A stretch of 53,438 nucleotides of DNA, from positions 1-53,438 of the forward strand of contig JAZNBZ010000182.1 of NCBI GenBank assembly GCA_045587285.1. The letters run 5' to 3'. Source of the stretch: Candidatus Flemingiibacterium sp. GTDB taxonomy: Bacteria > Bacillota > Clostridia > Oscillospirales > CAG-272. A model generated the notes under the pieces. That model saw nothing but the letters and a program-made list of their open reading frames with translations, was not told where the DNA came from and made no database searches. Both the position numbers and the translations under genes were made by a program. Shown in pieces: positions 1,263-8,470 of the stretch (positions within the stretch are counted from its first letter, which is position 1; every line of letters begins with the position of its first letter).

Positions 1263-2606
1263 ATGGCGAAGCTGCCGCCGAATCCGTTTAAGATTACCGC
1301 ATATTATTCGGGGAATACTTGTATCATAGATGCGAAGCACCGGTATCAAACCTGCGAGGTACTCTGCAAGCTGTTCGATTATCATCCCGATCATGATCTC
1401 GCACTTATGCGTGATGAGCTGAAATCCTTACTGCAGACTCTGCTGTTCAAATTTGATGTAAATTACAGCGCTTGGGAGAATTACGACAAGAACGTATACA
1501 GAGCGCAAAAGGTTCTGAACGACGTGAAGGAGCTTCTGTGCAAGCTTACGCTGTATCGGTATATAACGAATCCAGACACGTTTGATTACGAAGATTTGAT
1601 TCACTGCCTCAGTCTGCACTCGTCTATGTTTGATAAGCACTACGACGACCGAGCAACTCGTGCGGAGCAGGATGATGAGAAAGAAAAAATGCGCGAGCGT
1701 GGTGTACCCGAAGATACCATTAGAAAAATGTTTGATCCCCTCGAAGAGGATGAAGAGGATTACGAGGAAGGCTTTGAAGATCCCAATGAGCAGTACTCCT
1801 TTCATGAGGATGCAAGGTACAAGGAGCGTGACTACGGCTTCTACGACAGCCATGTACTCGAATCGGTTTTGACGTCAAAGGACGATATGCGCCATTTTCA
1901 GCCTTACTGGTACAACGACGATCAGGAGCTGGAGGATTATCTCGGTGCGGAGCTTCTCAACAATGATCTGCGTGCGCTGATTGAGCCGTACATCGATTTG
2001 CTCGACACGCTGACGCATTTGGCGGATACCTACGGGCGTTTTCTCGATGAATACGTTCACTCACGCGGCAAGTTCCTGACGGATGCAGAGATTGCAGAGG
2101 TTTACGAAAATTATGTGAAGGTGGAGGAAAGGCAGATCATCAAGCCCTCCGGCGTGATGTCGCTTGAATGTAAGCCGATCAAGCAAGGCAGCAAATCCGT
2201 GTGGTGCGATGTGTATACATTCAATAGCTTGTCAGCGTTCCTGTACTTCGATTTCTTCCGCGGACTGCGGAGCGGATTTATCCCCAAGCGGTGTGTACAT
2301 TGCGGCAAGTATTTTCTGCTGACTTCGGGGCGGTACTATGACTTCTGCGAGCGTGCAGTGAAGGGGACAAGCGGCAAGACCTGCCGCGATATTGGTGCGC
2401 ATAAGAAGTACGAGGAAAAGTGCAAAAGTGATCCTATATGGCTTGCCTACAATCGAGCGTATAAAAATCACTACGCGAGAGTTCTCAAAAAGAAAATGAC
2501 CAAGTCCGAATTTCGGACTTGGTCGGATTGGGCAAAGGTGTATAGAGATAAGGCGATAGCAGGGAAGGTAAGAATAGAGGAGTATGAGAAGCGGATTCGG
2601 GAGTGA
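1263..2606 (+). CDS. Hypothetical protein, DUF6076-like, acidic middle region and C-terminal Cys cluster (CVHCGKYF...YYDFCER...GKTCRDIG)
   Basis: 447-aa ORF with GGGAG 8 nt upstream of the ATG. The C-terminal zinc-ribbon-like motif and overall layout resemble DUF6076 proteins of clostridial mobile elements. The family call is from memory only. Confidence 0.65.
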   Translation: MAKLPPNPFKITAYYSGNTCIIDAKHRYQTCEVLCKLFDYHPDHDLALMRDELKSLLQTLLFKFDVNYSAWENYDKNVYRAQKVLNDVKELLCKLTLYRYITNPDTFDYEDLIHCLSLHSSMFDKHYDDRATRAEQDDEKEKMRERGVPEDTIRKMFDPLEEDEEDYEEGFEDPNEQYSFHEDARYKERDYGFYDSHVLESVLTSKDDMRHFQPYWYNDDQELEDYLGAELLNNDLRALIEPYIDLLDTLTHLADTYGRFLDEYVHSRGKFLTDAEIAEVYENYVKVEERQIIKPSGVMSLECKPIKQGSKSVWCDVYTFNSLSAFLYFDFFRGLRSGFIPKRCVHCGKYFLLTSGRYYDFCERAVKGTSGKTCRDIGAHKKYEEKCKSDPIWLAYNRAYKNHYARVLKKKMTKSEFRTWSDWAKVYRDKAIAGKVRIEEYEKRIRE

Positions 2607-3025: not shown

Positions 3026-4075
3026 TCATCTGCTCTCCAAAATTTCATTAAATCTTCCCATAACTAAATCAACAATGACTTGTGACTTAACTCTCATGTT
3101 TAGCCTTTCAATCACATCACGCACAATTGATTCGGTAAGCACAGGAATATATGCACGATAATTTGGATACTCGTCCATAAGCTCATTAAACAATGAGATC
3201 AACATATCCTTAGATCCTGGTTTTGATGGGTACCCACGCGAGATCAATGCCATGTTGTTATCATAGTTCGGAGCAAATCCAATTAACTCTCCCGTCTTGG
3301 TATTTCGCAAAAGTCCGAAGTTGTTTGTGTGCCTATCGGGATTGGCACAAATGGTATCCATAAAGATCATTCTGATATAATCGGGAATAGCATTTGGACA
3401 AATATTTTTGAGTTCATTGATAACGTCAAAATAATCTTCGTTATCCCCCATGAAAGTAGAGGCAGGTTCGAAATTGACCGTTGCGAAGTCAGTAAAATCA
3501 AGTGACTTAATATATCCATCTCCACGCTCATAAATAGCCATATTCATCCCAAGCGCTTTTCCAAGCTCATAAATGAAAAGTTCAGAAAACATTTCGTTAT
3601 GAGTGGCTTTTTTGTACATCCACCATTTTCCGTCGCGAAGCTTCCAGCACTTTTCAAAACTTCCCACATTGGTAAGTTCAGGGGTTTTTGAACGCTTGCT
3701 ATTGGCGGCACGGTTAAAACTGTCATAGTTTCCTTTTAAGGCAAGATTGGAAAAATAGTCATCGGAAAATTTGACATCATTGTAGGTAAGATTAGAACCG
3801 ATTTCACGAATCCAATAATTATCTGTTATCGTCGCTCCGTTCACGTGTATAACGGTAGATATATCATCCTTCTCGTTTAAGCGAAGAGCTTTCTTTAAAA
3901 GACGAGAGTTGGCGCGGTGACTGTCAATAGCACGAGTCTCGAGCCACATATTCGCATTCTGAATTTTGCGTAAATACAAGGGAAGCAAAGTTTCATTCAA
4001 GACAGTAAGCATATTATTCTTCCATACAGCTACAAGAGTATCTCCGCTTAATATTTCGTAATTTCTATTAGTCAT
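3026..4075 (-). CDS. Short HipA-like Ser/Thr kinase (putative type II toxin)
   Basis: 349 aa. Catalytic-loop motif ICANPDRHTNNFGLL (DxHxxN of HipA_C). Its ATG overlaps the stop of the upstream HTH gene by 8 nt (ATGACTAA). GGAGGGGGAG RBS. Confidence 0.7.
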   Translation of the reverse strand: MTNRNYEILSGDTLVAVWKNNMLTVLNETLLPLYLRKIQNANMWLETRAIDSHRANSRLLKKALRLNEKDDISTVIHVNGATITDNYWIREIGSNLTYNDVKFSDDYFSNLALKGNYDSFNRAANSKRSKTPELTNVGSFEKCWKLRDGKWWMYKKATHNEMFSELFIYELGKALGMNMAIYERGDGYIKSLDFTDFATVNFEPASTFMGDNEDYFDVINELKNICPNAIPDYIRMIFMDTICANPDRHTNNFGLLRNTKTGELIGFAPNYDNNMALISRGYPSKPGSKDMLISLFNELMDEYPNYRAYIPVLTESIVRDVIERLNMRVKSQVIVDLVMGRFNEILESR

Positions 4076-4301
4076 TAGACTCCCCCTCCTTCACATTATC
4101 TTCGGGAATAAACTCCATAATATCATCAAGCGTACAGTTAAGTGCCTTACATATCTTGCCCAGAACCTCAACCGTCACATTGTTTCCCGCGCTCATTTTG
4201 CTGATCGTAAAATTGCTTATGCCAGCAAGTTCTGCGAGATCTTTCTTTTTCATATCTCTGTCTATTAGTAATTTCCAAAGTTTCTTATAGCTTACCGCCA
4301 T
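4068..4301 (-). CDS. XRE-family HTH protein (HipB-like antitoxin/repressor)
   Basis: MAVSYKKLWKLLIDRDMKKKDLAELAGISNFTISKMSAGNNVTVEVLGKICKALNCTLDDIMEF. Start moved to the ATG at 4301 (GAGGTG RBS). The track ORF start at 4370 lies inside the promoter. Confidence 0.8.
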   Translation of the reverse strand: MAVSYKKLWKLLIDRDMKKKDLAELAGISNFTISKMSAGNNVTVEVLGKICKALNCTLDDIMEFIPEDNVKEGESND

Positions 4302-4338
4302 TTTGCACCTCACAGTAGTATTTACATTCTGTGCTTTT

Positions 4339-4370
4339 ATTATAGCATAATATTTTATTGTTGTCAACAA
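4339..4370 (-). promoter_or_regulatory. Consensus promoter TTGACA-17-TATAAT whose -35 is embedded in the 13-bp palindrome TTGTTGACAACAA
   Basis: -35 at 4367-4362, -10 at 4344-4339, palindrome at 4358-4370. The palindrome is related to the TTGTCGACAA sites at 975 and 1182. Confidence 0.55.
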
Positions 4371-4547: not shown

Positions 4548-4790
4548 AAAAGTACCGAAGCCCCCGATTTTGCCGATTGCATAGCAATTCAGTGCATAGT
4601 GCTGGTGCATAGTGGGTATGATTATGCACCAAATGTACATAGAAGGGGTAACACGAAAATCGCCAAAAAGGGCGTAAAAAGCGTAAATACGGCACGATAT
4701 TCCGAGATATGGCACGATAAAGCCTCAAAACCTTGGTGCATAGGCCCATTGGGGTGGTAGAGGCCGCAAGTTCAAGTCTTGTCACTCAGA

Positions 4791-4825
4791 CCAACAAAAG
4801 GAGATTCGTAAGAATCTCCTTTTTG
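4791..4825 (+). repeat. Direct repeat copy A (ACCAACAAAAGGAGATTCGTAAGAATCT...)
   Basis: About 85 percent identical over ~29 nt to 6042-6076. It covers the CCA tail and terminator of the candidate RNA. Confidence 0.6.
4796..4825 (+). terminator. Intrinsic terminator
   Basis: AAAAGGAGATTC / GTAA tetraloop / GAATCTCCTTTT followed by T. Confidence 0.7.
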
Positions 4826-4834
4826 CTTTGTCAA

Positions 4835-5570
4835 GACAACCACCAGCGGAGCTGGTGGCACTAAAAAGCTTTAGCTATGAGTAGAAAAAGAACCTCCTTT
4901 GATGTATAATAGATTTGGTCTGCCAACCAAACAAAAAAACATCAAAGGAGGATCAAGTCTTGAAGCTTGACATAGATAGTTTAGCACATACGCGATGGAA
5001 TTGCAAGTACCATATTGTATTTGCGCCAAAATACCGAAGACAAATAATATACGGGAAGATAAAAGCAGATATAGGTATTATGTTGCGAAAGCTCTGCGAA
5101 TACAAGGGAGTAGAAATACTTGAAGCAGAGGCATGTAAAGACCATATACATATGCTTGTATCGATACCGCCCAAGTATAGTGTATCTCAAATAATGGGAT
5201 ATCTCAAAGGAAAAAGCAGTTTGATGATATTCGAGAAATATGCAAATTTGAAATACAAATATGGAAATAGGCATTTTTGGTGCAGAGGATATTATGTAGA
5301 TACGGTTGGCCGAAATAAAAAGGCAATTGAGCAGTACATACGGAATCAACTGCAACAAGATTATGAGGATGATCAATTGAGTATAAAAGAGTTTGTTGAC
5401 CCGTTCACGGGTGAGCCAGTAAAAGGAGGCAAATAAGTAAAGCCCCTTTAGGGGCATGCCGGTGAAAGTCGTGCGGTTGGCAGACTTTTCGACGAGCCTT
5501 AAGGCTCAGCCTATGACATGCCCCAAGGGGGCTTATTCAAACCACCGGCACGGCCGGTGGTTATGATTAT
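4835..5570 (+). mobile_element. IS200-type element (IS200/IS605 family, tnpA only)
   Basis: Left-end hairpin CCACCAGC-GGA-GCTGGTGG (4840-4858). Related right-end hairpin AACCACCGGC-ACG-GCCGGTGGTT (5540-5562). A 13-bp stem CCTCCTTTGATGT (4893-4905) / ACATCAAAGGAGG (4939-4951) sequesters the RBS. Size is ~0.73 kb. Ends are approximate. Confidence 0.8.
4960..5436 (+). CDS. tnpA: IS200/IS605 family Y1 (HUH) transposase TnpA
   Basis: ...HTRWNCKYHIVFAPKYRRQIIYGKIK...DHIHMLVSIPPKYSVSQIMGYLKGKSS... shows the HUH motif and Y1 family signature. The probable start is the TTG at 4960, 8 nt after AAGGAGG. Confidence 0.85.
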   Translation: MKLDIDSLAHTRWNCKYHIVFAPKYRRQIIYGKIKADIGIMLRKLCEYKGVEILEAEACKDHIHMLVSIPPKYSVSQIMGYLKGKSSLMIFEKYANLKYKYGNRHFWCRGYYVDTVGRNKKAIEQYIRNQLQQDYEDDQLSIKEFVDPFTGEPVKGGK

Positions 5571-5734: not shown

Positions 5735-5847
5735 ATACAAAATGACGGCGGTTCCCTGCTTTGAGAACCGCCGTTTGCGAATATTCAGAGTTTTTTCTTT
5801 GTCTACTGTGGCGCAAATTTTGAGCTGGAGGCACTTTTTCTACACAA
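5735..5847 (-). ncRNA. Candidate ~110-nt minus-strand transcript
   Basis: Minus-strand promoter TTGACA-16-TATTAT (-35 at 5882-5877, -10 at 5860-5855). A 10-bp hairpin ACGGCGGTTC / GAACCGCCGT (5745-5774) is followed on the minus strand by CATTTTGT. The U-tract is weak. Confidence 0.2.
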
Positions 5848-5879
5848 CTGCCCTATAATAGCAAATTTTTAGATAATGT

Positions 5880-5932
5880 CAAGTTAACGAGGGGAAATTT
5901 GCTTGTTTTATATTTTTACCCTCGTTAACTTG
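5880..5932. repeat. Perfect 14-bp inverted repeat CAAGTTAACGAGGG-N25-CCCTCGTTAACTTG
   Basis: Arms at 5880-5893 and 5919-5932. No flanking U-tract on either strand. The left arm overlaps the -35 of the minus-strand promoter. Confidence 0.6.
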
Positions 5933-6041
5933 GAAATCCTCGCACATTATCGCCCCTAGCGGTCATCTTTGATTTTTCTATCTCTAAGCCAGCTCGTCGT
6001 AGGAACTGTATGTTTAAGTTATATCTGGTATGAACGCTTGA

Positions 6042-6110: not shown

Positions 6111-6138
6111 AAAAAATCAGGCAGGTAAATGCGCCTGG
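6111..6138 (-). terminator. Weak intrinsic terminator of the DUF3892 operon
   Basis: On the minus strand, CAGGC-N10-GCCTG is followed by ATTTTTT. Confidence 0.35.
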
Positions 6139-6163
6139 TATCCGCATCACTTGCATGGACGTG

Positions 6164-6406
6164 TTATTTGAATTTTATTTCGAGATCAACTTTACTTGTC
6201 GCCCCACACTTGGTACATCTTGCATTTCCCTTGGATAATATTTCGATTGTAGTTTTGCCGCATTTCTGGCAATTTCCATCTATTATATCGCCAACATGCG
6301 AATCGAGTACTTTATCGGGATTCTTTTTCAAATCCTTTTCCACGTCTTTTTGAATTTCTTTTAACAGTTTGTTTGCGTTAAACCCTTTGATTTTCACACT
6401 TGCCAT
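6164..6406 (-). CDS. Small zinc-ribbon protein (CxxC-x13-CxxC), unknown function
   Basis: MASVKIKGFNANKLLKEIQKDVEKDLKKNPDKVLDSHVGDIIDGNCQKCGKTTIEILSKGNARCTKCGATSKVDLEIKFK. The GGGAGG RBS lies inside the end of the upstream gene. Confidence 0.6.
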   Translation of the reverse strand: MASVKIKGFNANKLLKEIQKDVEKDLKKNPDKVLDSHVGDIIDGNCQKCGKTTIEILSKGNARCTKCGATSKVDLEIKFK

Positions 6407-6408
6407 AG

Positions 6409-6693
6409 TCAACCAACCTCCCTCGGAAGATCAAGAAGATTATCGTGAGTATAGTCGTTGGGAGACGAACGAACATACTTTTCCCCGTTTACGCTAACCG
6501 CATCAATTACATTCGGGTAAGGGAATCTATCCACCTTTATGCTTCCAGGATTTTCCTTAACATAATCGTGAATAACAGATTTTTTGTAGTAGCCAGGAGT
6601 TTCACATCCAGTTATATAAAGCTGGTCAATTTCAACCAGTTTATCGGAGTAATAACATCCAGGCTTCATTTTAATCTTGGTTACATGCATCAT
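6409..6693 (-). CDS. DUF3892-like protein
   Basis: The C-terminal ...NGEKYVRSSPNDYTHDNLLDLPRE matches the DUF3892 signature (xYxRTxPDxxxxDNLLxLP) as I recall it. The ATG at 6693 is 6 nt after GAGGTG. Confidence 0.55.
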   Translation of the reverse strand: MMHVTKIKMKPGCYYSDKLVEIDQLYITGCETPGYYKKSVIHDYVKENPGSIKVDRFPYPNVIDAVSVNGEKYVRSSPNDYTHDNLLDLPREVG

Positions 6694-6774
6694 TAAATGC
6701 ACCTCATTTCATAATATTTATTTGAAAACAGACACCAAGAAAAAATGAGCAACTTCACATCTTTTGAGATAAAG

Positions 6775-6807
6775 TACTTGACTTTTGGAATTCAAGTATG
6801 TTATAAT
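6775..6807 (+). promoter_or_regulatory. Extended -10 promoter TTGACT-18-(TGT)TATAAT overlapped by the inverted repeat TACTTGA-N10-TCAAGTA
   Basis: -35 at 6778-6783 and -10 at 6802-6807. Inverted-repeat arms at 6775-6781 and 6792-6798. Confidence 0.5.
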
Positions 6808-6813
6808 AGCCTT

Positions 6814-6907
6814 GTCTGTGGAAACATGGCTTGAGTAATCTCAACTTGATGCTATGTAGACATTCTTGCAGCGTGTTAGATACCAGCTAACACGCTGTTC
6901 CTTTTTG
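6814..6907 (+). ncRNA. Candidate ~90-nt cis-antisense RNA to the leader of the DUF3892 operon
   Basis: It starts downstream of the 6778 promoter. It ends at an 11-bp stem CAGCGTGTTAG (6869-6879) / CTAACACGCTG (6887-6897) followed by TTCCTTTTT. It is fully complementary to the minus-strand leader. Confidence 0.4.
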
Positions 6908-6961
6908 TCTGTAATCATCTGTAAATTAGCGAACCTCCAATATCGCATTCTTGATAATGAT

Positions 6962-6990
6962 ATTATAACACATTTTGCACATTTTGTCAA
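6962..6990 (-). promoter_or_regulatory. Consensus promoter TTGACA-17-TATAAT for the DUF3892/zinc-ribbon operon (~260-nt leader)
   Basis: -35 at 6990-6985 and -10 at 6967-6962. Confidence 0.5.
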
Positions 6991-7033
6991 TATATTTCCT
7001 GGAATATTATTCAAAAAATTGAATAATAATAAA

Positions 7034-7076
7034 ATTCAAGAAAATACTTGACATTTCTCGCAATATATGATATAAT
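7034..7076 (+). promoter_or_regulatory. Consensus promoter TTGACA-17-TATAAT with upstream AATTCAAG-AAAA-TACTTGAC motif pair
   Basis: -35 at 7048-7053 and -10 at 7071-7076. The same two 8-mers occur at the 6775-6798 promoter. Confidence 0.55.
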
Positions 7077-7103
7077 ATATTATCTTTTTAGGAGGTTTTT
7101 GTT

Positions 7104-8144
7104 ATGCCTAAAATCGTTGTTACAGAAAGATTGGCCGACACCCTAAAAATGTTACGTGCACAAAATGGCATCAAATCGAAGGATCTTGCAGAACATTTAG
7201 GTAAAACACCAGGGTATGTTTCAAAACTAGAAAAACAAGAAGTAAAGAATATCGAATTAGAAACCGTTGAATCTATCTTTTCTTTTATATTAGGAGCGGA
7301 CTATAAAAAAACCGAAATATGGGAACAAATTTATGCCTCACTTCAAATTAGATATTCAAAAGCAGAGATAGATGAAGAAATTTGGTTCGCTAACTTTGAC
7401 ACAGTCTATAGATATATTCCAATACCCGAAACTGTAATAGATTACTTTAATGACAAAATATTCTCCTTAAATATTACACGTGATTTCCTTTTGGAACGAA
7501 TGAACGCAAACGAGGCATTGTCTGATGAAGAAATCAATGATGAGAATATAAAACCTAATGTTTGGTATCCTGCGGCACCAGATGGAAAAGCATCAATTAA
7601 AATTTGCATCTCTGAAAATGTGTTGTCAAATATTTTGGATAAAAAAATGCGTTCTTCTCCGTACGTATTTGTCTTTTGCATACTCTACTACTTACTAAAG
7701 ATTGAAAAATATAGTGATGTCATAAAAATAGATGATTCTCAAATTCGACAACTAAATCAAGAAGCAAAGTCTATTTTAAATTCGCATAAATTTTATTCTA
7801 TAGCTGAGAGAGAAAATATCGTAAAGCAGGCTCAATCCCAAGAAGAGATACACAATTTACTTAGTTCTTTTGATAATGATAATGCAAAATTGATTGGTGA
7901 AATTCTTGATGAATTAAAATTTGCAAGTGATATTAATATCCAAATAACTAATGATAGGTTAACTGGATTTCTTAAAAACTTAAAAACAGATGCCTGGTTC
8001 ACTCTTAAACTTATAAGTTTGGAGTATCATGCGCTCGACTCTATAGACATATCACAGAGGAAAGAATTCTTAAAAGAAGTTGAAAAACTTATAAAAAAGT
8101 ATACCGATACACAAAAAAATCTTAAGAACACTGAAACGTATTAA
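7104..8144 (+). CDS. XRE-family HTH domain protein with ~270-aa unassigned C-terminal domain
   Basis: 346 aa. The N-terminus LRAQNGIKSKDLAEHLGKTPGYVSKLEKQEVKNIELETVESIF is a Cro/CI-type HTH. AGGAGG RBS. The coding sequence is very AT-rich. Confidence 0.75.
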   Translation: MPKIVVTERLADTLKMLRAQNGIKSKDLAEHLGKTPGYVSKLEKQEVKNIELETVESIFSFILGADYKKTEIWEQIYASLQIRYSKAEIDEEIWFANFDTVYRYIPIPETVIDYFNDKIFSLNITRDFLLERMNANEALSDEEINDENIKPNVWYPAAPDGKASIKICISENVLSNILDKKMRSSPYVFVFCILYYLLKIEKYSDVIKIDDSQIRQLNQEAKSILNSHKFYSIAERENIVKQAQSQEEIHNLLSSFDNDNAKLIGEILDELKFASDINIQITNDRLTGFLKNLKTDAWFTLKLISLEYHALDSIDISQRKEFLKEVEKLIKKYTDTQKNLKNTETY

Positions 8145-8158
8145 TTACCCGAAAAAGC

Positions 8159-8188
8159 GGCGAGATTTGTCTCGCCTCCCTTTTCTTT
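8159..8188 (+). terminator. Intrinsic terminator
   Basis: GGCGAGA-TTTG-TCTCGCC followed by TCCCTTTTCTTT. Confidence 0.6.
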
Positions 8189-8267
8189 GTATGGTACAAT
8201 ATAAGCGTAGCCCTATACCGTGTAAATTGGTATAGTCAGCTATGCTTATTTTTGTTATAATAAGGAA

Positions 8268-8470
8268 GTAACTGGCTGACGGTTCTTTGATGAACTACGC
8301 GTTCGTGCAGTAAACAGTCACCCACCTTCTTGTTATAGAGATTCGATTAAGCAGGTTGTTCCGTTTTTTGCTGGTTGGGGTACCCCAACCAGCAAAAAAT
8401 CGCGTCCGTGTCACGAGCCAAAGATGAGTCGTAATAAGCTTGGTGGAAACGTTACGAAAAAACACAAAGG
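8268..8470 (+). ncRNA. Candidate IS110 bridge (seek) RNA in the left end
   Basis: Extended -10 promoter TAGTCA-17-(TGT)TATAAT at 8233-8261. The structured region includes an 18-bp perfect hairpin. Position 5' of the recombinase matches the IS110-group layout. Confidence 0.4.
8364..8399. repeat. Perfect 36-nt palindrome T6-GCTGGTTGGGGTACCCCAACCAGC-A6
   Basis: Read directly from the sequence. T-run before and A-run after on both strands, so it is not an intrinsic terminator. Confidence 0.8.

Follow-up and report, generated by a model that had tools for sequence, protein, structure and literature searches.

The locus described here raises the question of what is controlled by a large XRE-type regulator whose gene faces a divergent operon of two small proteins, one of them a DUF3892 protein, and why the long leader of that operon should be opposed by an antisense RNA. 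It lies in the first sixth of the window, by which is meant the whole 53,438-nucleotide stretch analyzed (Candidatus Flemingiibacterium sp., assembly GCA_045587285.1, contig JAZNBZ010000182.1). A preliminary description of the window had likened the locus, placed on a mobile island, to toxin-antitoxin, abortive-infection or superinfection-immunity switches. How bacteria control the transcription of their anti-phage systems is known for only a few families of regulators, mainly BrxR/CapW and CapH/CapP. The current analysis indicates that the region is probably a regulatory cassette that is complete in itself, moves horizontally and is of the phage-defence-island kind, its function being read from association.

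Results and discussion

A single unit in unrelated surroundings

The unit, about 2.1 kb long, comprises the regulator gene, the antisense small RNA and the two small-protein genes. The block 6114-8190 was retained at 67-78% DNA identity in at least nine other contigs, with unrelated flanks, so that it recurs as a single unit amid unrelated genomic contexts. Its conservation between unrelated flanks argues that the arrangement is more than chance. The architecture originally claimed, a divergent regulator opposite a two-gene operon with a long leader and a cis-antisense small RNA, was upheld, and the three near-consensus promoters, the intrinsic terminator and the three genes were all located where they had first been placed:

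6118-6137, minus strand: intrinsic terminator that ends the DUF3892/zinc-ribbon operon; left edge of the cassette (homology to loci L001/L002 starts at 6114)
6164-6406, minus strand: 80-aa zinc-ribbon protein, C46-x2-C49-x14-C64-x2-C67
6409-6693, minus strand: 94-aa DUF3892 protein, first gene of the operon (Pfam PF13031, E 3.7e-8)
6694-6955, minus strand: leader (~260 nt) of the P1 transcript, start inferred; holds the complement of the small RNA
6775-6798, no strand: palindrome TACTTGA-N10-TCAAGTA over the -35 box and spacer of P2, with a half-site ATTCAA at 6790-6795; possible secondary operator
6778-6807, plus strand: P2, small-RNA promoter, TTGACT-18-TATAAT (11/12) with TG
6814-6905, plus strand: predicted small RNA of ~90 nt, antisense to ~+50 to +141 of the leader
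6962-6990, minus strand: P1, cargo operon promoter, TTGACA-17-TATAAT (12/12) with extended TGT
7005-7028, no strand: O1, perfect palindrome with 10-bp arms and the core ATTCAA-N4-TTGAAT; candidate operator of the regulator
7033-7040, no strand: third half-site (AATTCAAG), located 7 nt ahead of the -35 box of P3
7048-7076, plus strand: P3, regulator promoter, TTGACA-17-TATAAT (12/12) with TG; conserved across the family
7104-8144, plus strand: 346-aa regulator, XRE HTH (residues ~1-68) followed by a 270-aa C-terminal domain
8159-8176, no strand: bidirectional terminator; right edge of the cassette (homology to L001/L002 stops at 8189-8190)

A lack of co-occurrence of the three genes had been named at the outset as grounds for abandoning the proposal; they were found together in many genomes (L001-3, L028-33 and L036-37, where L denotes a locus of the comparison). 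The GC content of 0.30-0.36 was the lowest in the window, in agreement with the claim that the cassette is its most AT-rich part, and the insertion sequences said to bracket it, IS200 (Y1_Tnp) and IS110, were both identified by domain matches. The terminator scan gave 8 terminator-like sites in 2.8 kb versus 1.6 expected. A HipA-like/XRE pair adjoins the cassette, and the neighbours of the family loci include Kiwa, restriction-modification genes and a WYL regulator.

A putative regulator of a previously undescribed type

The 346-aa protein is a putative DNA-binding regulator of a previously undescribed type. Its sole Pfam match was an N-terminal HTH_3 (residues 14-58), and the HTH was likewise the sole part matched in the PDB sequence profile search, NCBIfam, PHROGs and PADLOC. 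The C-terminal domain, which ends in an invariant E-T-Y, had no match in PDB, BFVD or Pfam. The AF2 model (pLDDT 86.5 for the full length, 87.3 for the C-terminal domain) showed this domain to be largely helical; when the full model was compared with PDB and BFVD by Foldseek only the HTH was matched, and the best E-value for the C-terminal domain alone against PDB was 1.5. The ~270 residues after the HTH, which could not be assigned from the sequence at first reading, thus resisted the structural check as well. The HTH region matched HipB, among others, in the PDB sequence profile search and HigA, among others, by Foldseek.

The family is uniform in length (~340-355 aa), with 107 close homologues and 584 representative clusters. 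The 346-aa protein shares no homology outside the HTH with a 173-aa XRE regulator that precedes DUF3892 in other loci (XRE173-type loci). Among 2.9 million viral contigs, 4 held a full-length homologue, while GenBank phages and PLSDB plasmids held none. Together with the flanks, which differ from locus to locus and are mostly non-phage, these counts led us to reject both a prophage CI repressor beside early phage genes and a prophage CI/Cro immunity region.

Promoters and candidate operator

In 83 non-redundant loci the regulator gene was divergent from a variable operon, and the order promoter, palindrome, promoter was conserved whatever the cargo. A minus-strand promoter equivalent to P1 occupied the same position in nearly all family loci, regardless of the cargo, and a palindrome lay ~90-110 nt upstream of the regulator start codon. 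In the cassette this palindrome is O1, TATTATTCAA-AAAA-TTGAATAATA, which lies halfway from the -35 box of P1 to that of P3. The operator sequence tracked the protein clade: ATTCAA/TTGAAT was found with the recognition helix KTPGY, and AGTAAA/TTTACT with KSPAY/F. The half-site close to P3 also had an equivalent in the other clade, an AGTAAA half-site 3-5 nt upstream of its -35 box.

The preliminary description had missed this palindrome and had suggested instead that a pair of 8-mers, TACTTGAC and AATTCAAG, over the -35 boxes of both plus-strand promoters was the shared operator. The pair is indeed present, but it consists mostly of -35 context plus one half-site, and the strongest candidate for the operator is the palindrome at 7005-7028. 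TACTTGAC occurs twice in the window, at the -35 boxes of P2 and P3, and AATTCAAG three times, two of them in the cassette; taken singly, neither count was above shuffles (33/100 and 43/100), and P2 and P3 carry the two words in opposite order. The palindrome at 6775-6798 was conserved in L001/L002 and degenerate in L003, L028 and L030. The center of O1 lies at about -62 to -65 from each inferred start and overlaps neither -35 box, a position that would also suit an activator.

The leader and its antisense RNA

The leader measured 253-285 nt in 10 loci. The preliminary description had predicted a ~90-nt RNA perfectly complementary to it, and the promoter and terminator, both conserved, and the compensatory pairs all spoke in its favor. 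P2 was conserved in 10 DUF3892 loci and in XRE173-type loci. The predicted RNA comprises two hairpins, one at its 5' end (6814-6858) and that of the terminator (6868-6898), which has 12 pairs and is followed on the plus strand by TCCTTTTTGT, the U-tract of the transcript. RNAalifold gave 24 pairs, 7 of them with compensatory changes, a result reached by 0 of 500 shuffles, and the ratio of G-U to A-C pair cells was 16:1 on the plus strand. The covariance model scored 113.6 bits at 6808-6916, found no further copy in the window and recognised the independent loci L040-43 (E 1e-10); there was no match to Rfam 15 within 6700-7000 at E up to 1. Conserved signals, covariation, strand asymmetry and model matches in independent loci thus all support the ~90-nt RNA. 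Since it is also present where DUF3892 follows the unrelated 173-aa XRE protein, the small RNA belongs with the DUF3892 leader, not with the regulator.

RNAduplex gave no conserved site of pairing between the small RNA and the ribosome-binding region of DUF3892 (z -2.4 to +1.1, mostly ~0). Within the leader, RNAalifold predicted a long-range helix between ACAGAC (complement of 6907-6912) and GUCUGU (complement of 6728-6733), which is weakly supported, with a few compensatory changes, and is located ~35 nt from the Shine-Dalgarno sequence. The terminator scan found no attenuator terminator in the leader, and no upstream open reading frame was conserved in the aligned intergenic regions: the minus-strand frame MITDKK... 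was rejected on the grounds of a 1-nt indel in L028 and a missing ATG in L030, as were intergenic frames of 57 and 61 aa, which had indels and were not conserved. A second RNA class has the loop CCAACCG, a word that recurs immediately ahead of the Shine-Dalgarno sequence; since ~10% of shuffles yielded a common word of 7 nt, only the C/T covariation in L015 and L022 is suggestive here.

The DUF3892 and zinc-ribbon genes

The DUF3892 assignment (34.2 bits against a cut-off of 22.3) covered residues 6-90 and profile positions 4-71 of 71. There were 275 homologues of 91-94 aa, and their alignment backed the ATG start at 6693. The zinc-ribbon gene starts 2 nt past the DUF3892 stop, with its ribosome-binding site within the last DUF3892 codons; the central spacing of its cysteines is x14, not x13 as first given. 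Pfam returned weak zinc-ribbon matches for the 80-aa protein, and PADLOC, NCBIfam and PDB none. Homologues with 74-76% identity follow DUF3892 in L001-3, L028, L030 and L036, and a homologue is also present in the XRE173-type loci L044-47. Neither protein matched any family in PADLOC 2.0 or had a sequence relative in the PDB. The statement that no named defence family is represented therefore holds only for curated sets such as PADLOC, but DUF3892 operons had already been predicted to be defence-linked, as had those of DUF2188, both of them lying divergently behind CapH/CapP-like regulators (Lau et al. 2022, bioRxiv, 10.1101/2022.04.27.489752).

Cargo behind relatives of the regulator

The neighbourhoods of the relatives, which the preliminary description had proposed to inspect, contained many cargoes homologous to PADLOC defence families (43 of the 83 non-redundant loci); in about half of the family loci the cargo was of unknown function. 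The regulator family is general, its cargo being interchangeable and not specific to DUF3892, and it was paired with at least 15 unrelated cargo types. Among them were CBASS (cyclase, E2 and effectors), Pycsar, Hachiman, a ThsB-like TIR and bSEFIR, as well as the candidate families PDC-M48, PDC-S45, PDC-S34 and DUF2188 (PDC-S16) and a DpdF-like protein. Since relatives precede many different anti-phage systems, the regulator probably switches on defence-type cargo. The idea of a controlled defence switch on a mobile island was thereby strengthened, but the regulator it invoked is not bound to DUF3892.

The small genes that come first behind these regulators, DUF2188 among them, could, however, be regulatory accessories. 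On this reading, DUF3892 and the zinc ribbon might counteract the repressor, adapt a signal or co-regulate by binding RNA, and the effector of the cassette would be missing or lost. Small genes do come first ahead of diverse effectors: a 57-aa basic protein in 20 loci, where CBASS, PDC-M36A-like or DUF6119 cargo follows, and a 47-aa zinc ribbon in 9. DUF3892 itself stands in such a position in L036 (DUF3892, zinc ribbon, CD-NTase, Cap15-like 2TM effector), in L034 (ahead of PDC-S34) and in L040 (ahead of DUF2188 and a 475-aa protein), and IS200 is located ~700 nt downstream of the operon in the window. Nevertheless, 11 of the 13 loci in which DUF3892 comes first end at a terminator after the zinc ribbon, with no recognised effector and in unrelated contexts, an argument that the two genes by themselves have a function on which selection can act. 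Moreover, no effector remnants were found between IS200 and the operon or elsewhere in the window, and many family loci had no small first gene at all. We therefore regard the accessory role as unlikely.

It is similarly improbable that the locus is an addiction module, in which DUF3892, the zinc ribbon or both would be the toxin, the RNA a type I-like and the XRE protein a type II-like antitoxin, and selfish persistence on mobile DNA the outcome, with no dedicated anti-phage role. A compact, mobile, AT-rich unit between IS elements in which an XRE protein and a cis-antisense RNA both exert negative control would fit such a module, as would the adjoining HipA-like/XRE pair and the HipB and HigA matches of the HTH. 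However, the 94-aa DUF3892 protein is soluble, unlike the short hydrophobic type I toxins, pairing of the RNA with the ribosome-binding region was no better than chance, and a 346-aa regulator that accompanies so many unrelated cargo types, some of them multi-gene systems (CBASS, Pycsar, Hachiman), is unlike a cognate antitoxin.

A cell-density switch resembling prgX/prgQ with Anti-Q, governed by an RRNPP-type peptide-sensing quorum regulator, is very improbable: although PrgX, Rgg and ComR are alike in size and domain order, the C-terminal domain is largely helical and an antisense RNA would target the operon leader, as it does in pCF10, Foldseek gave no TPR or RRNPP match (for the full model, ComR probability 0.23, TM 0.17), the C-terminal domain by itself matched nothing in PDB, and no small peptide frame was conserved in the aligned intergenic regions.

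A model for the cassette

The region is most likely a repressor-controlled, antisense-guarded cassette of the defence type, the functional part of this assignment being drawn entirely from association. The 346-aa protein would be a dimeric XRE-type regulator that binds the 7005-7028 palindrome and the flanking half-sites between the divergent promoters, most probably repressing both P1 and its own promoter, P3, until a signal sensed by the C-terminal domain relieves the repression. P1 would then direct the synthesis of the 260-nt leader, DUF3892 and the translationally coupled zinc-ribbon protein. A second layer may be provided by the small RNA, made constitutively from the convergent promoter P2 and fully complementary to the leader, which would be expected to damp leaky cargo expression by transcriptional interference, duplex-dependent cleavage or disruption of the leader helix. 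DUF3892 and the zinc ribbon fill the slot that is taken, behind other members of the regulator family, by CBASS, Pycsar, Hachiman, TIR and further defence operons, and from this we infer that the two form a minimal effector/sensor pair, anti-phage or stress-related, that is probably costly. Several observations were counted against this proposal, 1) the large majority of DUF3892-first loci without a recognised effector, so that the pair could be a regulatory accessory or unrelated to phage, 2) the missing PADLOC matches of both proteins, 3) the functionally unassigned half of the family cargo, 4) the position of O1, which an activator could use as well, and 5) the failure of the small RNA to pair above chance level with the ribosome-binding region of DUF3892.

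If this is a third regulator family, unrelated to the two that are understood, it would point to another way of timing costly immunity, would make it simple to mark out, in the genomes of gut and rumen Clostridia, defence cargo that is still uncharacterised, and would give DUF3892, DUF2188 and the small zinc ribbons, long suspected to be defence-linked, a defined regulatory slot. The family could thus help to find new defence genes. A further step, which we consider possible but rather doubtful, is that the 270-aa domain is a new infection- or stress-sensing module that licenses any defence operon behind it, making the family a new "bait". Were this so, DUF3892 with the zinc ribbon, the 57-aa basic protein, the 47-aa zinc ribbon, DUF6119 and an unmatched family of 280-310 aa would represent anti-phage systems not yet described, or adaptors of universal use. 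For DUF3892 a fold of the dsRNA-binding or hibernation-factor type has been proposed in the literature, and the protein might read out the ~90-bp duplex of leader and antisense RNA, so that the trigger would be an RNA. We found no previous account of an antisense RNA that is conserved and backed by covariation in the leaders of such operons; it would add an RNA layer to the regulation of defence.

Comparison with known systems

BrxR/CapW is also one regulator family that serves many defence systems from a shared divergent promoter region and senses a ligand or signal through its C-terminal part (PMC9122601). However, those proteins combine a winged HTH with WYL and WCX domains, while the present regulator is of the XRE type and is not homologous to them; membership was rejected because Pfam found XRE-type HTH families only. 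The C proteins of restriction-modification operons, C.BclI and C.Esp1396I, were among the best structure and sequence matches of the HTH and have palindromic operators at a defence operon, like the one proposed here, but they are ~80 aa long and have no sensor domain.

PrgX/prgQ/Anti-Q of the Enterococcus plasmid pCF10 combines an XRE regulator having a large C-terminal domain with convergent promoters and an antisense RNA against the operon leader, as does the cassette. Here, in contrast, the RNA has a promoter of its own, apart from the regulator gene, and transcription of the regulator is divergent; Foldseek showed no peptide-binding fold, and the leader has no attenuator terminator. The small RNA itself resembles RNAI of IncB and IncI-alpha, which controls plasmid rep genes by way of a leader pseudoknot, and the RNAs of type I toxin-antitoxin systems in being short, stable, two-hairpinned, intrinsically terminated and fully complementary to a 5' leader. 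A further likeness is the long-range contact near the ribosome-binding region that is predicted for the leader. That helix is weakly supported here and ~35 nt from the Shine-Dalgarno sequence, and the protein regulated does not initiate replication, nor is it a hydrophobic toxin.

CapH/CapP shares with the cassette an XRE HTH regulator placed divergently upstream of a variable defence operon and an overlapping cargo of CBASS, DUF3892 and DUF2188 (10.1101/2022.04.27.489752); the common position is a matter of the mode of working, not of homology. Membership in CapH was rejected, the PADLOC capH match being weak (E 0.054) and confined to the HTH region. CapH is a protein of ~100 aa, whereas the present regulator is a single 346-aa chain with an unmatched C-terminal domain. 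It has no HExxH motif, and an ImmA/IrrE-type metallopeptidase (CapP) is absent from the cassette and the related loci. Furthermore, the cassette has an extra layer in its antisense RNA.

Organization of the cassette

The cassette (window 6114-8190), in which the gene of a 346-residue XRE regulator diverges from an operon encoding a DUF3892 protein and a zinc ribbon protein, had the anatomy drawn in the preliminary description, as confirmed by sequence reading and consensus scans.

Promoters and terminators of the cassette (consensus and terminator scans)
7048-7076, plus strand: P3, regulator promoter, TTGACA-17-TATAAT, 12/12 match to consensus, TG upstream
6990-6962, minus strand: P1, promoter of the DUF3892 operon, TTGACA-17-TATAAT, 12/12 match, TG upstream
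6778-6807, plus strand: P2, antisense small RNA promoter, 11/12 match, TG also present
6868-6898, plus strand only: 12-pair hairpin followed by TCCTTTTTGT
6137-6118, minus strand: operon terminator
8159-8176, both strands: operon terminator

The sole Pfam match in the 346-residue protein was an N-terminal HTH_3 domain (residues 14-58), the 94-residue protein was a DUF3892 protein (34.2 bits, cut-off 22.3), and the 80-residue protein gave weak zinc ribbon matches with the motif CxxC-x14-CxxC, the spacing being x14 and not x13 as first reported. The cassette was, as also first reported, the most AT-rich part of the window (GC 0.30-0.36), with IS200 and IS110 transposases (Pfam) on either side. 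The paired 8-mers proposed as a shared operator of P2 and P3 were correctly located, but their counts alone were not significant and their order was inverted between the two promoters. The best operator candidate was a feature that had been overlooked, a perfect palindrome, TATTATTCAA-AAAA-TTGAATAATA, at 7005-7028, halfway from the P1 -35 box to that of P3.

Several other features were observed near the cassette. A HipA-like kinase (349 residues, HipA_C) that overlaps a 100-residue XRE protein (3026-4370, minus strand) matched the PADLOC candidate PDC-M03A (E 1.3e-12). Together the two make up a second pair of toxin-antitoxin or defence type within the low-GC island that also holds the cassette. 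The left edge of this island carries a 447-residue protein with a C-terminal DUF6076 domain (1263-2606, plus strand). A match to Rfam STnc490 (4838-4948, plus strand; 50.9 bits, slightly under the gathering score of 56) overlaps the start of the IS200 transposase and probably reflects a structured IS200 5' leader. The gap between IS200 and the cassette contained a minus-strand promoter with an 11/12 match (5882-5855) and, at 5774-5745, a strong terminator, which together could give a minus-strand RNA of about 100 nt, as well as a 14-bp inverted repeat, CAAGTTAACGAGGG...CCCTCGTTAACTTG (5879-5935); the interval 5745-5935 had no Rfam match and no similarity to the related loci. About 80 nt ahead of the IS110 transposase, a near-perfect palindrome, TTTTTTGCTGGTTGGGGTACCCCAACCAGCAAAAAA (8360-8403), gave spurious microRNA matches in Rfam on both strands; it probably marks an IS end or acts as a terminator.

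Conservation of the unit

A word-indexed search returned 107 homologues of the 346-residue protein, nearly all 345-348 residues long, and an exhaustive profile search extended the family to 584 representative clusters, of which 207 fell below 1e-30; nearly all had 335-355 residues. The 27 genome loci retrieved belong to Oscillospiraceae, Acutalibacteraceae and other Clostridia, with one Butyrivibrio and one Desulfosporosinus, the cultured carriers Butyrivibrio sp. INlla16 (L014) and Desulfosporosinus paludis SB140 (L024); additional contigs were retrieved one by one. DUF3892 and the 80-residue zinc ribbon were present wherever the regulator shared about 65% or more identity with that of the window (loci L001-3, L028-33 and L036-37), the zinc ribbon gene being truncated to 40 residues in L032 and L033, and DUF3892 alone was kept down to 61% regulator identity (L034, L038). 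DNA similarity to the DUF3892-carrying relatives spanned 6114 to 8190, bounded exactly by both outer terminators, and the flanks were unrelated between all of the loci compared.

Flanks of the cassette
Window: IS elements
L028: TnpV and a CoiA-UvrD helicase
L030: phage-like and Mor genes
L032: MspI restriction-modification system and Kiwa
L036, L038: metabolic genes

The regulator, DUF3892 and the zinc ribbon are thus shared across unrelated surroundings, and their co-occurrence favours the three-gene cassette as originally proposed.

The 346-residue regulator

AlphaFold2, with an alignment of 39 sequences, gave a confident model of the full-length regulator (pLDDT 86.5, pTM 0.73) and of residues 81-346 alone (pLDDT 87.3). 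When the full model was compared with the PDB and BFVD by Foldseek, only HTH proteins were found, including ClgR, restriction-modification C proteins and HigA, while the C-terminal domain alone had no match in the PDB (best E-value 1.5, probability 0.04). Nothing beyond the HTH was matched in a PDB sequence profile search, NCBIfam, PHROGs or PADLOC, so that the approximately 270 residues that had resisted assignment have no counterpart in these searches. An RRNPP assignment was rejected, the representative ComR scoring a probability of 0.23 and a TM of 0.17. The C-terminal tripeptide E-T-Y (window 8133-8141), with E and Y invariant and T the consensus among 39 aligned family members reaching down to about 39% identity, could be a docking or degradation signal.

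The preliminary description had allowed that the protein might be an ordinary prophage CI-type repressor. No homologues were found in PLSDB plasmids or GenBank phages, and only four full-length homologues among 2.9 million viral contigs; it is therefore not such a repressor.

Operator and sign of regulation

In almost all family loci, the region upstream of the regulator gene shared one layout of four elements.

Layout upstream of the regulator gene in almost all loci
P3-like promoter
16-24-bp palindrome, about 90-110 nt ahead of the regulator start codon
Extra half-site, immediately ahead of the P3 -35
Minus-strand P1-like promoter, its -10 extended (TGTGTTATAAT)

The palindrome sequence tracked the regulator clade rather than the cargo, that is, the operon divergent from the regulator. 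ATTCAA-N4-TTGAAT was paired with the recognition helix K-T-P-G-Y in all copies at least 59% identical to that of the window, a group that includes the CBASS locus L004, and AGTAAA-N4-TTTACT with K-S-P-A-Y/F in the remaining copies. This joint change of palindrome and recognition helix, independent of cargo, is the best evidence that the 346-residue protein binds the palindrome and would control both P1 and P3. Repression is favoured, since both promoters are of near-perfect consensus and should therefore be strong unaided. Activation is also possible, because the palindrome overlaps neither -35; in the window it is clear of both, with its center about -62 to -65 from the predicted starts, and in L003 and the AGTAAA clade its distance to the P1 -35 is about 6-8 nt.

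The antisense small RNA

The cis-antisense RNA proposed from the sequence proved to have a promoter and terminator that are both present and conserved. When ten DUF3892 loci whose regulators share 61-100% identity with that of the window were aligned, conservation was higher in P2, in the 5' hairpin, in the terminator hairpin, whose loop AUACCAG is conserved, and in the U-tract than in the neighbouring spacer. RNAalifold predicted 24 pairs, 7 with compensatory changes, compared with 1.6 ± 1.1 in shuffled alignments (0 of 500 reached 7) and with 3 or fewer in slid registers. The paired columns contained 16 G-U cells and 1 A-C cell, so the structure is selected on the plus-strand RNA and not on the leader. 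The RNA had no Rfam match. A covariance model built from nine sequences identified a single copy in the window (6808-6916, 113.6 bits) and also matched loci on which it had not been trained, L040-43 (E 1e-10) and L044-47 (E 0.003-0.01).

In L040-47 (regions L040:3130-4000 and L044:3131-4000), DUF3892 (91-92 residues) lies downstream of a 173-residue XRE protein on the same strand, for which no relatedness to the 346-residue regulator was found beyond the HTH. The intervening 350-bp gap has its own operator palindrome, P1-like promoter and antisense RNA; the palindrome has 14-bp arms, TATATATTGTGCTT...AAGCACAATATATA in L040. Downstream are an 81-residue zinc ribbon and/or DUF2188, with a 475-residue protein in L040-43. 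Nearby lie type I restriction-modification genes or a WYL regulator. Because the small RNA occurs beside this unrelated XRE protein, its distribution indicates that it travels with the DUF3892 leader rather than with the 346-residue regulator. Given its direction in these loci, it cannot serve the regulator gene as an attenuating leader.

Different promoter-plus-terminator units occupied this place in other leaders under the control of the family. Such a unit, of one of several sequence classes, was present in 17 of 28 loci, a count that includes two spotted by eye (L003, by alignment, and L010); loci opening directly with Pycsar, Hachiman, TIR or a 57-residue gene had short leaders and no such RNA. 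A second class of antisense small RNA, about 75 nt long, was observed in the leader of a 47-residue zinc ribbon gene (L019:5755-5860, with counterparts in L008, L015, L016, L020-22 and L026). The loop of its first hairpin, CCAACCG, is also the sequence just upstream of the cargo Shine-Dalgarno, and L015 and L022 have CCAACTG in both places. A leader loop contested by the small RNA and the ribosome-binding region is suggested, but the case is statistically weak, as a shared 7-mer appears in about 10% of shuffles. In L004, the stretch separating the antisense RNA unit from the CBASS cyclase holds a 20-codon ORF, MQCIVLHFACCMKRKCVYSF (4786-4850, minus strand), that has a strong AAGGAGG ribosome-binding site; it may encode a leader peptide or have arisen by chance.

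Possible action of the small RNA

The RNA is complementary to approximately +50 to +141 of the 260-nt leader, and P1 and P2 are convergent, 141 bp apart, so that transcriptional interference between the facing promoters and duplex-dependent processing are both plausible. Repression of the cargo would be the more likely direction of effect. Pairing of the RNA with the translation-initiation region was no better than that of shuffled RNAs, and no attenuator terminator (terminator scan) or conserved upstream ORF (alignments) was found in the leader. RNAalifold of the minus-strand leaders predicted a long-range helix between ACAGAC, immediately 5' of the stretch complementary to the U-tract, and GUYUGU, about 35 nt upstream of the Shine-Dalgarno; it is backed by a few compensatory changes, a modest level of support, and leaves the ribosome-binding site uncovered. 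This helix would account for the conserved blocks GTCTGTAATCAT and TTTGAAAACA(A/G)AC.

Cargo of the regulator family

Among the more distant relatives, the divergent operon differed from locus to locus.

Divergent cargo in more distant loci (PADLOC and Pfam)
L004, L011, L017: CBASS, with cyclase, E2, and NUDIX-2TM, 4TM or HNH-SAVED effector
L124, L134: CBASS cyclases
L006: Pycsar (PycC and PycTM)
L012: Hachiman (HamA and HamB)
L014: three ThsB-like TIR proteins
L019, L026: zinc ribbon, DUF2188 and bSEFIR
L018: PDC-M36A-like
L073, L088, L112: PDC-M48A/B, PDC-S45, DpdF-like
L024: MBL (LmuA/RTasMBL-like)
L007: DUF6119

For a tally, 80 further metagenome loci were added, and their divergent ORFs were chained and labelled by BLAST to the proteins already annotated. 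Cargo homologous to PADLOC families was found in 43 of 83 non-redundant loci, a raw count rather than an enrichment, and an approximate one since deduplication was imperfect. With the same approximation, the 43 comprised CBASS (14), PDC-M36A-like (10), PDC-M48 (6), DUF2188/PDC-S16 (5), bSEFIR (2), PDC-S45 (2) and one each of Pycsar, Hachiman, TIR, DpdF-like, MBL and PDC-S34. The first gene was DUF3892 in about 13 of the 83 loci and a 57-residue basic protein in about 20; a 47-residue zinc ribbon was present in about 9 and an unannotated 280-310-residue protein in about 10.

The 57-residue protein, MATNPPKGDGHRNGAVR... (L007:2364-2534, minus strand; L011, L013, L062-66, L071, L079, L092 and others), precedes CBASS, PDC-M36A-like or DUF6119 genes and had no Pfam, NCBIfam or PADLOC match. 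Neither Pfam nor PADLOC matched the 280-310-residue family, which is the only divergent cargo of the regulator clade at about 30% identity (L025:254-1117, L118, L121, L122, L125-128, L130 and L132) and is a candidate new defence gene.

Role of DUF3892 and the zinc ribbon

Neither protein matched an entry in PADLOC, NCBIfam or the PDB. CapH/CapP-like regulators sit divergently upstream of DUF3892 and DUF2188 operons (Lau et al., 10.1101/2022.04.27.489752), and a defence role was predicted by Burroughs and Aravind (2020), as cited by Lau et al.; in a later paper, the Aravind group proposed that DUF3892 adopts a dsRNA-binding or hibernation-factor-like fold. In L036, a CD-NTase and a Cap15-like 2TM effector come after DUF3892 and the zinc ribbon, and DUF3892 lies alone ahead of PDC-S34 in L034 and ahead of DUF2188 (PADLOC PDC-S16) in L040. 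In 11 of the 13 DUF3892-first loci no recognised effector came next, and no effector remnant was found in the window. The favoured interpretation is that DUF3892 and the zinc ribbon would themselves be a minimal effector or sensor, given that across many contexts they persist together as a unit bounded by terminators. Less favoured is an accessory role in the regulatory module, comparable to that of the other small first genes.

Comparison with known systems

The regulator family and an antisense RNA in a DUF3892 leader were not described in the literature full text searched, which is no proof that they have never been described. As judged by comparative genomics, the cassette resembles CapH/CapP and BrxR/CapW in having a single regulator family, a divergent promoter region and swappable defence cargo. 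However, its regulator lacks both a protease partner and a WYL domain and is homologous to these proteins only in a generic HTH, and it is not a member of either group. The antisense arrangement resembles PrgX/Anti-Q and the antisense control of plasmid rep leaders. The anatomy first described was confirmed; its interpretation is partly supported, in a sharpened form, with function read throughout from comparative genomics.
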